The translations under genes and the position numbers were made by a program. The notes under the pieces are model-generated. The model was given only the letters and a program-made list of their open reading frames with translations. It was not told the origin of the DNA and did no database searches. A stretch of DNA of 64,000 nucleotides from Chrysomallon squamiferum (lineage: Eukaryota > Animalia > Mollusca): positions 9,052,001 through 9,116,000 of the forward strand of contig CM022676.1 in the NCBI GenBank assembly GCA_012295275.1, written 5' to 3'. Shown piece by piece: positions 14,401 through 20,400 of the stretch (the stretch's first letter is position 1; each line of letters begins with the position of its first letter).

Positions 14401-17400
14401 TAATAAATTAAAAATTTTATTCTTACGGTTTCTTTTAAACAGCTGTCTGATAATAAATATATCAAAGTAAATTTATTTATTGAATAATGTATGTATAATC
14501 TTTGCATGAATCAATATTGTTAATGAAATCTGTATGTAATGATTTATCATGAAACATTTGTAAAAATAACAATGGAAATACCTCAAAATATGTTTAAATA
14601 AAACACTTTTTATATATTTAATATGCATAGAAATTAAAACTAAACTAATAATAATGTAAAAGAATCATGTTCATAATTTTAAAAATCATAATAATATTAA
14701 AGGGAGGTAACAACAGCTAATGGGTATATTTTATATTCTTTCAGGGAAACATCAAAACTGACAACTACAAGGGTAGTGACTTCCACAACATCGCTATTTA
14801 ACATAACAGCATTTCCAAACAACTATAGTAATACTGACAACACTACATCCAAAAATATTTCATACAGTTTCACACCAAATATAGACATTTTTTTAATTAC
14901 TAAATATAATCAACTGCAATCAATTCTAATATAATGATGTCCTTTATTATCTTTGTTTTATTTTTATCATTTATTTTGTTTTAAAATTTCTCACAGAAAT
15001 GATTAAAACATTACTGTAGTTATGCACCAGGCAGATTCGACTACAAAAATCAGAATAATACAAGACCAAATAACAATGCAATTTAAAATGTTTTCTCTTC
15101 TGACATATAATGAATTGAGAAAAACAACTAATTTTAAAAAAAACATTTCATTTTTTTTTTAAAGTCAACAATTTATATATTAGATATTAGTTTTGGTATT
15201 TATTTCTGTCTGAATGGTCCATAGACATTTAACATCTACACACAAATGCATTACAACCTAACTATTAAGCACTGTTTGTCTTCAAAATACATTTTACATT
15301 TAAAACTCAAAGTGTTTATTGTACCATAGATAACATTAAACAAGCACAAGCATACAATTTATTTATTAAACCTACTCAAATATCTAACCTGTGCATTACA
15401 GTAATTGAGATTTTTATAGTCATTATTTTTTTAATTTCTCTTGATCAAGGTTTTACAGCAATAATCAATAATAAAGACATTTTGACTGATTCTTCTAATT
15501 TATTAATTAAATGCAGATTACTTTAATGTGTAACAATCCAAAGGATTACTGACACATTGAACCCATTTTCAAATAATTATACTGTACAAAAGAAGCTACA
15601 GCCAAATACAGTCAACAACAAATAAATATATATTTGATGCGGTTTTCGTACAGAATACATTTAATATTTTCCAAAACAGATTCTTCCAACTGGATTATTT
15701 TTTTCAAATGTTTACCTAAACAGAAGTACCAAACACCAAACATCTTGAAACTGTAAAATTATGAATCTGATTACATATAAGAATTTTGAATTATTAAAAT
15801 CTTATCAGAAAAGTGTTAACTGGTTGTGCACTAGATTTTAGACATCTCAAACACACGAACCATCCTAAAAATTATGAGTTTGGTTTCATTTGAGTATTTT
15901 CAACTATTAGATCTGAACAGGAAAGTGTTAGTTTTATGTGCATAACATTTTGAAGTCTAAGTGATGTGAACATTTGAACACATTTTAGTCGCAAGACGTT
16001 AATTAATTTTTAAGACAACATCATTTGTGAACACCATGCGATTTCCAATGTTATACCTACTAAACGGACACCAATACAGTTTTTAGTAATTTTGATGTCA
16101 TCATCAGTTTTCAATTCAAGATCACTAGGCTTTGTTTTAGTTTCACTTATTTGATTCGGGTTTTTTCTCTCTCTCTCTCTCTCTGTACGTTCATGAATTC
16201 AGTTACAGCATTTTCATTTTGTTTGGGTTCTTCATTTTCAACAGTAGCAAACAAGTTGATAAACTGTGTTATTTGGGGGTTTTAATTTGTTTGAGGATGT
16301 ATGTAGACTTTCCAGTTTTTGTCTGTTTTGATATGATGTATTACACAAAAATGTTTTTAAAAATAGTGAAAAATAAAAAAAAAAAATTAGAACCTAAATG
16401 TGCAGTAATAGTTATCTATGAATGTTTTCTGAACTAACCAAAAAAAACTTCAAAAAGAATTAAAATGTAATTTAAAATAAACAAAAAACATACTGCACTT
16501 GTTTATATGTATATATATAAAAAAATATATAAATAAATAAACCATTAAATATGTACCAGAAACATTTTTTTAAAAAAAAACTTATTTGAAATTAAAAAAT
16601 AAAGAAAATTTGTTTATTTAGAAAATGAAAAAATATACATAAATAAATATATAGACACTGAAAAATATGTAATTTGTACAGAAAATATATTTTTGACAAA
16701 AATTAAATCTGTACACTCAAAATAACAAAATATAACAATTCGTTCTAATTTTAAAAAGAATGATATTTATATTAAAAAAAAAATGTTCTAAAAATAAAAA
16801 AAATTATATACATTTTATATATGTAATGTGTTCTGAATATTATCCTAAAAAAACAAAAAAAAACAAATCTATATGCGTGCATATTTTGATTTAGATGAGC
16901 TGAATCTAACACTCGTATAAATGGGGCATGTCATGCTGCTCTGTATACAACGTTACCTGGGGTACAAGGTTCTTAAAAGAATCCATAATCCGAGAGCTTT
17001 TAGCTTCTTGGTAATAGGAGAAAATTCCTGTGACGATGACAACAGCTGTTAATACTACTCCTAAATACAACTGCAAAAAAAAACAATGCAACAAGCCTGG
17101 TAAGTCAACAACAACAACGACGATGACGACAAAACACTGACAACAACAGCGTTGAGTGACAACAACAACGTTGGGTGGCGACAGTCAAACAAAGGTTTGA
17201 CAAGCCAAACGACGATGTCACTGTCGTCGACAACGACGAACAGGACAACATCCGACGTCTTGTTGCATTACAAACCTGGGGTACCATACTTTTGAACGAG
17301 TCCATTATTCTGGAGCTCTTAGCTTCTTGGTAGTAAGAAAAACACCCTGTCACCACGACAACGGCCGTTAAAACAATACCTAAATATAACTGGAATAAGA

Positions 17401-20400
17401 AAAAAAAGGCACAGGTGAGTGTTAAGGGTGTCAGAAAAGTGGCAAAACGACGCTGTCGCCGTTGGTCAGTTAGCGTTTACCTGAGGTACCATGTTCTTGA
17501 AGGATTCCATGATACGCGAACTTTTGGCTTCTTGGTAGTATGAGAAAATTCCGGTGACAACCACCACAGCTGTTAATACAATTCCTAAATACAACTGGAA
17601 AGGAACGTTTTTATTATTACATGGAATACATGGAATGAACTGAAATATCCATCAAGCGATTAGTTTGGAAAGAAGTGTAAGCGAAATGTCACACTATGCA
17701 TGGGAAAAGAGCTGTTAGTTTAAAATAAAACTGCAAAAAAAAAAAATAATAATAATAATAATAAAAACTGCATTAGTATTTCTAGTTAAATGGGAGAAAG
17801 TTTATGAAAGAAACTGAAAATAAATATTCTAATATATGCACCTATGTTAGTTTAAAATGAAACAGGAAAGAAAAATAAACTGCATTAATATTTCTTGATA
17901 GATAAGAGAAAATTTATGATAGAGACTGAAAATAAATATTTTAATATATGCACTTATGTTAGCTTAAAATAAAACTGGAAAGAAAAAACTGCATTAATAT
18001 TGCTTTACAGATGGCAGAAAACATATGTTTACTTTAAACTGAAAATAAATATTTTAAATGAAAACATTAAGTGTATAAAAAAAATAAATAAATAAATAAA
18101 TCTAGCTGAAAATCAATGGAATTTTATCATTAATCTTTTAAAGCACTTTATAGATAAGAAAGATTTATTTTTTATTTTTTATTCTCAAAAAAGCCTGGAA
18201 AAACAATTCAAGTAAGTCTTCCAAGCATAAATCATGAAGTTATTTTATATACCATATGTATTAATATTCTGAAAATGTTTTAAATGTGCTACGTTTTATC
18301 ATTTTACAACCAAGGTACAAGAACAATCCATTATCCAATGAAAGTTTCATAAAAGCTGGCAAATTCTTTTTGCTTTCATGTCTTTTATCAATGGATCTCT
18401 ACTTAAACAAGTGAAATATTTTTTTTTTAAATTTTTGGCAAGGTTTATTAATTCTTTGTTTTTTTTTTTTTTTTTTGTTTAATGAGTTACATACTTAGAA
18501 AATAAAACACCACATGACATTTTCAGAACAAGCATAAAAGTAGCAACAATACATTTTTAATTTTATATATATTAATTTTTTTTTTTTTTTTTTTTTTTGC
18601 AAATGTTTTATTACTTAAAAAATAGTAAGTTGAGCCAAATTCTTTATTTATTTTTAAATATTAATAGCTTTTGCACTTAATATATATGAAAATTGATTCA
18701 AACTATTCTGGTTTTACAGATTAATTACACTTCAGGAACACTGAAACAAAACATGGAGAAGGTTTTTTTTTAAGCACATCATTTCCAATTAATTGCAACA
18801 ATAGAGGAATTTGTTTTTATTTAGTTATTCATGCAGACATTTTTATTATTTATCTTTGTGTTTAGCAAATATGTATTAGTTAACTGCATTTTTTATCTAA
18901 CATTATTAATTTTCAAACAGATCACAAGCACTGAAAAAAGCAGTTTCTTTCATTTTATTTAAAACATACAGGCTGGCTGGAAGCGAGGAATAAAAAAATG
19001 TTTTATTAATAATTCATTGAATATTTTAATCTACATTTGTATTACATCACACAGAGGAAAAAATAAACCTGCTTTCAGTATACAAAGGTTAAAAAGTACA
19101 TTCTGTTTCTTTCAGTCAACAGAAGTATTAATCTTTATTACACACTCGTTTTCTTCCTTTTTTTTTTTTTTTTTTTTTGGCAGGAACCAGAACTTCAGAA
19201 CCCCAGAATTATCAAAAAACTGGTTTTATGAAGTGTATTAATTTCGCATCTGTTAAATACATATATATTTTTTATTTTTTTTTTTTTTTTATTTAAATAT
19301 TAATAAGTGTATCTATGGTGTTACAAACAAATTCATCTATATTATTATATTTGTATTCTTCCAAACACTGTTGTTACATAATTAATACTTGTAATTAATA
19401 CTTAGCCAAACTGTTACATAATTATATTTCATATATTTCTAGTTCTGTCATTATAAACATTTAAAACATAATAAAACATTTAAATATAAAATATAGATAA
19501 ACTAATGTATTAAACATGACTAATGTATAAACTGATGATAATATATGTGTGAAAATCTGTTTCAATGTATTCATTCATAACACCACAAATACTTTTTGAA
19601 AAAGGTAAAAAATGAGTTTCATGGTCTTCGCAATTTCCACACTTGAAAAATATAGGTTCTAAATATTATTATTAATAACTATTTTTATTTATTGCAGATT
19701 ATCTTAAAGGCAAATATATAATAACTATTAATGATCTTTTTGAAAAATGAGTAAATTTGTCTTTTGAAAATCTGAAGTCAAGAAATGAAAACCATGAAAA
19801 CATCTGTCTGAAGCTGTAAAGCATTACTAAATATTAAAATTAAATTTAATAAACAATAAAACAAAATACCAAATTGCTGTCACATAAATTTTAAATAAAA
19901 AAAAAAAATTTAAAAAAATACTCTCATACTTTATAAATATTTACATATTAAAATTCCATTTTTTTTTTTTATAAATAAAAATATCAGTTTATATCATCTT
20001 TCATAATAATTGATTAAATATTAAAATACAGGTTTTTCTCCATTTTTATTATTAAAAATAAATAAAACTGTGAATTATACTTACATTATCACCTGGAGCA
20101 TCTTCCATAGCACTTACTTGGATGGAGTAAGCTATGTAACACAAAGCAGCCCCTATCCATAGAAGGAGAGAGAAACCTCCAAATAATTGTTTACAGAATT
20201 TAACCCACTCCGGGGTTGTTTTGGGTGGGGTAAGTTGATTCGGACCATCCCTAAGTAAAATCTCTTTGGCTCTTTCAACACTGTGACCCTGTTTTGAAAA
20301 AATAAACGTTTTATAAAGTTATTGGTAAAAAAAAAAATATCTGCACATCCAGTCCAGAGAATTAAGATCAACTGCAGTTTCCAACTCTCCAAATTAAGAT

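Follow-up and report, generated by a model that had tools for sequence, protein, structure and literature searches.

The alpha-subunit gene for Na,K-ATPase in the mollusc Chrysomallon squamiferum keeps three intact tandem copies of its fourth coding exon and probably splices one of them into each messenger RNA (mRNA), which would yield three versions of the pump with 3 to 5 conservative residue differences between them. The gene lies on the minus strand, between 2330 and 25089, of a 64,000-nucleotide (nt) stretch of contig CM022676.1 (assembly GCA_012295275.1, positions 9,052,001 to 9,116,000), hereafter the window, in which all coordinates of the snail gene are given.

Exons 4A (17594 to 17481), 4B (17389 to 17276) and 4C (17070 to 16957), all on the minus strand, are each 114 nt long, and each is preceded by a pyrimidine tract with a cag acceptor and followed by a CAG/gt donor. 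The reading phase is 0 both at the upstream donor (20085) and at the downstream acceptor (14292), and the three phase-0 exons have the coordinates and splice sites given for them in a first-pass annotation of the window. In an ungapped alignment, the encoded segment corresponds to residues 123 to 160 of pig alpha1, that is, membrane helix M2 with its cytoplasmic extension, which, in the domain terms of established pump structure, is most of M2 plus the run into the A domain. The copies vary at six sites (pig numbering; order, 4A/4B/4C), namely, 127 (I/I/V), 134 (V/V/I), 138 (I/C/I), 152 (E/D/D), 156 (N/S/N) and 157 (M/M/L), exactly as listed earlier, while Ala145 and Arg149 are common to all three. 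Exon 4A is the copy nearest the annotated model of Gigantopelta (36 of 38 amino acids [aa] identical), and 4B, of the Cys138/Asp152/Ser156 type, is a single residue away from the majority sequence of molluscs. Being adjacent, equal in length, in the same phase, homologous and bounded by canonical splice sites, the copies have the features of mutually exclusive tandem exons, and each restores the frame and encodes the same structural element, as is expected within a mutually exclusive cluster.

Judged by their codons, the three copies are old and under purifying selection. Between 20 and 29 of the 114 nucleotides differ per pair. Exons 4A and 4C are separated by 13 synonymous and 4 replacement codons (the counts first reported were reproduced), 4A and 4B by 22 and 3 and 4B and 4C by 18 and 5. 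By the Nei-Gojobori method, the proportion of differing replacement sites (pN) is 0.05 for 4A/4C, 0.06 for 4A/4B and 0.08 for 4B/4C, against proportions of differing synonymous sites (pS) of 0.55, 0.85 and 0.79, respectively (Fisher P values from 7e-9 to 2e-15 across the three pairs), which bears out the proposal in the first-pass annotation of an old duplication under purifying selection. As rates, dN is 0.05 to 0.09 per pair and dS is 1.0 or saturated, with 4B saturated at synonymous sites against both other copies; coding constraint is thus visible in each copy. Because replacement sites have barely diverged and synonymous sites have diverged far, the copies are neither haplotypes nor assembly stutter, and none has decayed.

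Mutually exclusive use of 4A, 4B and 4C is likely, a judgment drawn from homologues in other animals. The M2 cassette is not unique to the snail, since two other phyla have this exon annotated as an alternative. Isoforms X1 and X2 of Procambarus clarkii are equal in length and differ solely inside the M2 exon, at 5 residues; the same holds for X1 and X2 of Oratosquilla oratoria (XP_076050680.1/681.1; 3 residues), in which the minor copy is found in 3 of the 15 isoforms listed, and for two proteins of the annelid Owenia fusiformis (CAH1797436.1/437.1; 6 residues). Two proteins from one locus of Cherax quadricarinatus (KAK8753006.1/009.1) differ at 6 residues in the M2 exon and at 5 in a cluster farther downstream. 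In Procambarus, Homarus and Oratosquilla, each isoform of the numbered sets contains one M2 copy. The earlier claim of mutual exclusivity therefore stands as far as these single-copy isoform pairs in homologues go, and for the snail gene itself we infer it. The crustacean and Owenia exons share with the snail cassette the same 38 residues and boundaries; two variants are found there, whereas the snail, a mollusc, has three copies, without demonstrable orthology between the copies.

Three splice-competent M2 copies were also found in one locus, L016, among 80 metagenome loci (many of them short or intronless); its copies are 954 and 678 nt apart and are under purifying selection. This locus holds a lophotrochozoan-like Na,K-ATPase gene (5273 to 9946 of L016) with M2 exons at 6004, 7072 and 7864 and an additional intron within the equivalent of exon 3, and its best per-residue matches (P0172 and P0175) reach about 85%. 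A second metagenome locus, L037, has M2 segments at 1378 and 6001; these are tandem whole-gene paralogues, 4.5 kb apart and each without flanking introns, rather than alternative exons.

Each copy would be joined alone between exon 3 and exon 5, and the main form would carry one copy, probably 4A, given its closeness to the Gigantopelta model, with the others restricted to certain tissues or conditions. Exclusion by frameshift and decay can be ruled out: the length of 114 nt, divisible by three, would keep joined copies in frame and out of reach of decay. From pump topology, an added membrane helix would be expected to invert M3 to M10, and since joined copies would escape decay and such a helix would flip the downstream topology, exclusion would have to be enforced during splicing. 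Incompatibility between U2- and U12-type splice sites was also ruled out, as the donors (gtaaac, gtttgt and gtaacg) were compared with the U12 donor consensus and none is U12-type.

The introns between the copies offer a candidate for such enforcement. With GC contents of 0.45 to 0.46 and CpG frequencies of 5.5 to 6.8%, they stand apart from the other 17 introns measured (0.18 to 0.33 and at most 2%). The intron between 4A and 4B (17390 to 17480; minus strand; GC, 0.46) is 91 nt long and has branch-point-like motifs 11, 15, 50, 59 and 65 nt from its donor, so that a steric component would come from the 50 to 65 nt left between donor and branch point; in vertebrates, the reported limit for this distance is about 50 nt (accessible text of PMC5740500 and PMC7969005). 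The intron between 4B and 4C (17071 to 17275; minus strand; 205 nt; GC, 0.45; 14 CpG), with branch-point-like motifs 91 and 171 nt from its donor, is predicted to fold into multiple hairpins, with a z score of -3.96 (0 of 200 shuffles reach it). Within it, an 11-bp Watson-Crick stem is predicted whose 5' arm (17259 to 17269) begins 7 nt past the 4B donor and whose 3' arm (17085 to 17095) lies between the predicted branch point and the 4C pyrimidine tract, ending 14 nt before the 4C acceptor; a stem of this length was matched by 14 of 1,000 shuffles. When the cluster is folded as a whole, the 14-bp element that follows the 4A donor (17451 to 17464) is predicted to pair instead, with a mean pair probability of 0.92 and several G-U pairs, with a partner (17106 to 17119) that ends beside the one motif close to the 4C acceptor that resembles a branch point (A at 17105); all four elements are on the minus strand. 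The two pairings would compete, one bringing the 4A donor and the other the 4B donor next to the 4C branch point, and either would put an upstream donor too near that branch point. The signal for RNA structure is of moderate strength, and a lock consisting of steric hindrance helped by RNA structure is a possibility that we regard as slightly less probable than its absence. Mutually exclusive exons enforced by a short distance between donor and branch point or by competing pairings are described, in the parts of these sources that were accessible, in a human survey (PMC5740500), for OGDH exons 4a and 4b (PMC7969005) and in PMC4691838. The snail cluster resembles these systems in its in-frame homologous exons, its short, structured introns and its candidate competing pairings; in the snail, however, the pairings are predicted, and its distances are borderline.

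Several further observations were made around these elements. An AG at 17097 to 17098 (minus strand) lies 26 nt 5' of the 4C acceptor, at the base of the 11-bp stem and shortly past the predicted branch point; splicing there would shift the frame. The first 205 nt of intron 6 (13426 to 13630; minus strand) fold more strongly than the intron between 4B and 4C (z score of -4.86), probably via TG and CA microsatellites. An inverted-repeat search of the long flanking introns gave A/T-rich matches alone among the 25 longest of 1,296 pairs, and Rfam had no match in 16850 to 17750 at E values up to 0.1.

Regarding the origin of the copies, an exon tree (80 rows and 114 columns) resolves the grouping of 4A with 4C alone (99/93), and this sisterhood points to a duplication within the snail lineage. 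Exon 4B, at the end of a long branch (0.87 changes per column), finds no firm place in the tree, and the grouping of the three copies as a single clade was not established, nor was it rejected (approximately unbiased P value [p-AU], 0.42). The minor copy of pancrustaceans keeps Ala at pig position 149 in both insects and crustaceans; this Ala149 is missing from the snail copies, all of them with Ala145 and Arg149, which favors separate origins or later homogenization. One might go further and speculate, with more doubt than attaches to the lock itself, that molluscs, annelids and pancrustaceans each separately made the M2 exon, as an unreported duplication hot spot, into a splice switch tuning the coupling between A domain and ion gate, the three versions of the snail being held apart by a competing RNA-structure lock at the 4C branch point.

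A number of points weigh against one-copy splicing of functionally distinct exons, or against the proposed lock. The case for exclusivity in the snail gene comes from homologues and not from its own junctions. The cassette was absent from the other mollusc records examined, Gigantopelta is annotated with one model, and among 22 protein pairs compared, solely the annelid pair differs exclusively at the M2 exon; no mollusc pair does. One copy alone appears in the isoform sets of Scylla (3 isoforms), Eriocheir (5), Portunus (2), Macrobrachium (10 and 5) and Penaeus japonicus (5), and minor copies may be rare in RNA. As for the lock, the best-placed branch-point motifs between 4A and 4B are at or slightly past the 50-nt limit; with a separate set of 30 shuffles, the fold of the intron between 4B and 4C has a z score of -2.64, second of 37 intron windows, and that intron is rich in loosely pairing GTT and GTC triplets. 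Among 16 donor-acceptor pairs, the duplex from 4A to 4C has an uncorrected P value of 0.02 and that from 4B to 4C a P value of 0.11, and similar pairing was not found in L016 (0 of 9 pairs with a P value of <0.15). Finally, in a set of 34 mollusc proteins, the residues found at each of the six variable sites are also present in single-copy pumps: at position 138, 16 proteins have Cys, 14 have Ile and 4 have Val; at position 152, 30 have Asp and 4 have Glu; and at position 156, 27 have Asn and 7 have Ser. In five RNA runs from two studies, 47 to 65% of the sampled words of 14100 to 20300 were present, which is no evidence for splicing or for the triplication.

With each variant residue also known from single-copy mollusc pumps, the differences between isoforms may be slight, and the same fact favors the alternative that the copies are mutually exclusive yet nearly equivalent in function, having been kept for regulation (cell-type control of splicing, or mRNA level). 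That account shares the splicing claim with the one we prefer and departs from it in the step of kinetic tuning alone; the Ala149 kept by the pancrustacean minor copy, on the other hand, points to selection on protein differences, and we consider near-equivalence unlikely, if the strongest of the alternatives. Under one-copy splicing with distinct pumps, the effect would be fine kinetic tuning, of E1/E2 poise and turnover, rather than glycoside resistance; judged from the residues, the isoform effect is likely small kinetic tuning, or none. The link to the cardiac-glycoside site drawn in the first-pass annotation did not hold. The glycoside positions in supplement 1 of PMC6733596 run from 104 to 122 and then from 308 onward, and the cassette, which starts at 123, falls outside them; residue 122 closes exon 3 and is common to all forms. 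As none of the six variable sites is among those positions, tuning of glycoside resistance was ruled out, and the cassette has no bearing on it.

A less probable alternative is that one or two copies are in use and the remaining copy is dormant, its conservative sequence reflecting past selection. The long branch of 4B and the single form annotated in Gigantopelta would fit this view, but the low dN beside the high or saturated dS, the lack of any stop or indel and the intact splice sites speak against it, as a sizeable period of decay would have left random replacements; we therefore hold dormancy to be improbable.

Routine inclusion of two or three copies together, giving an in-frame insertion and an inactive or degraded protein, is very improbable. 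The in-frame exon length would allow it, and gene models that join two copies do exist. Two copies within 110 residues were seen in 13 of 300 proteins of at least 300 aa, and in 11 of the 13, from seven insect and crustacean genera, the tandem copies have diverged; since the searches that supplied the set favor proteins with double copies, the figure of 11 should not be read as a frequency. These automated models are from Timema, Armadillidium, Homarus, Homalodisca, Ladona, Ephemera and Frankliniella (P0001, P0003 to P0007, P0011, P0012, P0015, P0244 and P0425). They are probably mispredictions of an alternative exon pair, that is, automated read-throughs, whereas the isoforms of Procambarus, Homarus and Oratosquilla are single copy, and the expected inversion of M3 to M10 argues further against co-inclusion. 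The remaining two double-copy models, from Centruroides and from Myotis (the sole vertebrate model with close tandem M2 copies), were dropped, as their copies are identical and likely represent model errors, and fused two-gene models (Camelus, Castor, Batillaria and one copepod) were left out of the count. That the triplication is an assembly artefact, from collapsed haplotypes or paralogues, is scarcely credible, given that the differences between copies are nearly all synonymous, that the flanks are unrelated, that no other exon is repeated and that other animals have the same arrangement.

The host gene encodes 1,034 aa in 19 coding exons, exon 4 being counted once. With exon 1 at 25089 to 25060 and another 18 exons after it, the cassette is the fourth of the coding exons; those 18 exons form an open frame to the stop codon with any single copy of exon 4. 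Constitutive exon 3 (20085 to 20288) encodes M1 followed by the M1-M2 loop, as far as N122 (pig numbering), and is in all predicted isoforms, and constitutive exon 5 (14158 to 14292) encodes the start of the A domain; all are on the minus strand. The gene model has no internal stop, is 95.7% identical over 1,024 aa to XP_041373035.1 (P0145) of Gigantopelta aegis and is 90.8% identical to the protein of Haliotis asinina; this full-length open reading frame is similar throughout to named alpha subunits, placing it among the Na,K-ATPase alpha (P2C ATPase) proteins. The protein identities suggest that the animal is a neomphalid snail and a relative of the vent-dwelling G. aegis. Neither a fourth copy of exon 4 nor another duplicated coding exon among the 19 was found within the window. 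Short tandem repeats at 9230 to 9900, in the introns flanking exon 11, are visible as repeated translations. Elsewhere, a short open stretch (56305 to 56484; plus strand) resembles by eye the end of a Sushi/CCP domain and has no Pfam match.

Duplicated exons are already known from another part of this protein. The accessible text of Lind et al. (2013; PMC3793950) describes an arthropod exon 11 cluster of tandem mutually exclusive exons (11a and 11b in the barnacle); Daphnia, Anopheles and Ixodes have two to four copies, and Drosophila has four. In Drosophila numbering, the cluster is exon 6. The downstream arthropod cluster mentioned in the first-pass annotation is thus in print, and it maps just after M6 in crustacean isoforms: those of Procambarus, Penaeus, Homarus and Oratosquilla have a second variable cluster there (about pig 810 to 840), with at least three variants that combine freely with the choice of M2 exon. 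Like the snail cassette, it consists of tandem duplicated exons in the same gene; unlike it, it concerns a different part of the protein, after M6, for which the snail has one unduplicated exon of 352 nt. With vertebrate ATP1A1 to ATP1A4, the snail cassette shares the exon segment, aligning without gaps to pig alpha1 123 to 160; vertebrate diversity comes from whole genes, unlike the exon copies of the snail.

No description of the M2 cassette was found in the literature searched, although Zhen et al. (2012), Palladino et al. (2003), Yue et al. (2013) or the FASTA supplements of PMC6733596 may name the exon. Term look-ups in the accessible parts of PMC10028858, 10.1101/542811, PMC2791699, PMC13001012, PMC9713366, PMC11765297 and PMC6137147 returned nothing on it, and the portion of PMC6733596 available mentions two alternatively spliced exons, masked and unnamed, in insect alignments. 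The suggestion that the cassette had not been described is therefore right as regards publications, none having been found, and wrong as regards public annotation, in which crustacean and annelid isoforms already display it; what is new here is the mollusc member, the three copies and the candidate RNA lock.

For those working with these genes, the practical consequences are that gene predictors fuse the copies into false proteins, as in the 11 models above, and that studies of pump evolution in invertebrates may compare nonequivalent exon copies. For the family, a mollusc with three copies is added to an M2 splice cassette that the annotations of crustaceans and an annelid contain without comment. 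Should the copies differ kinetically, they would constitute a naturally occurring series of M2 variants within a single protein background and would show how one invertebrate gene could yield tissue-specific pumps.

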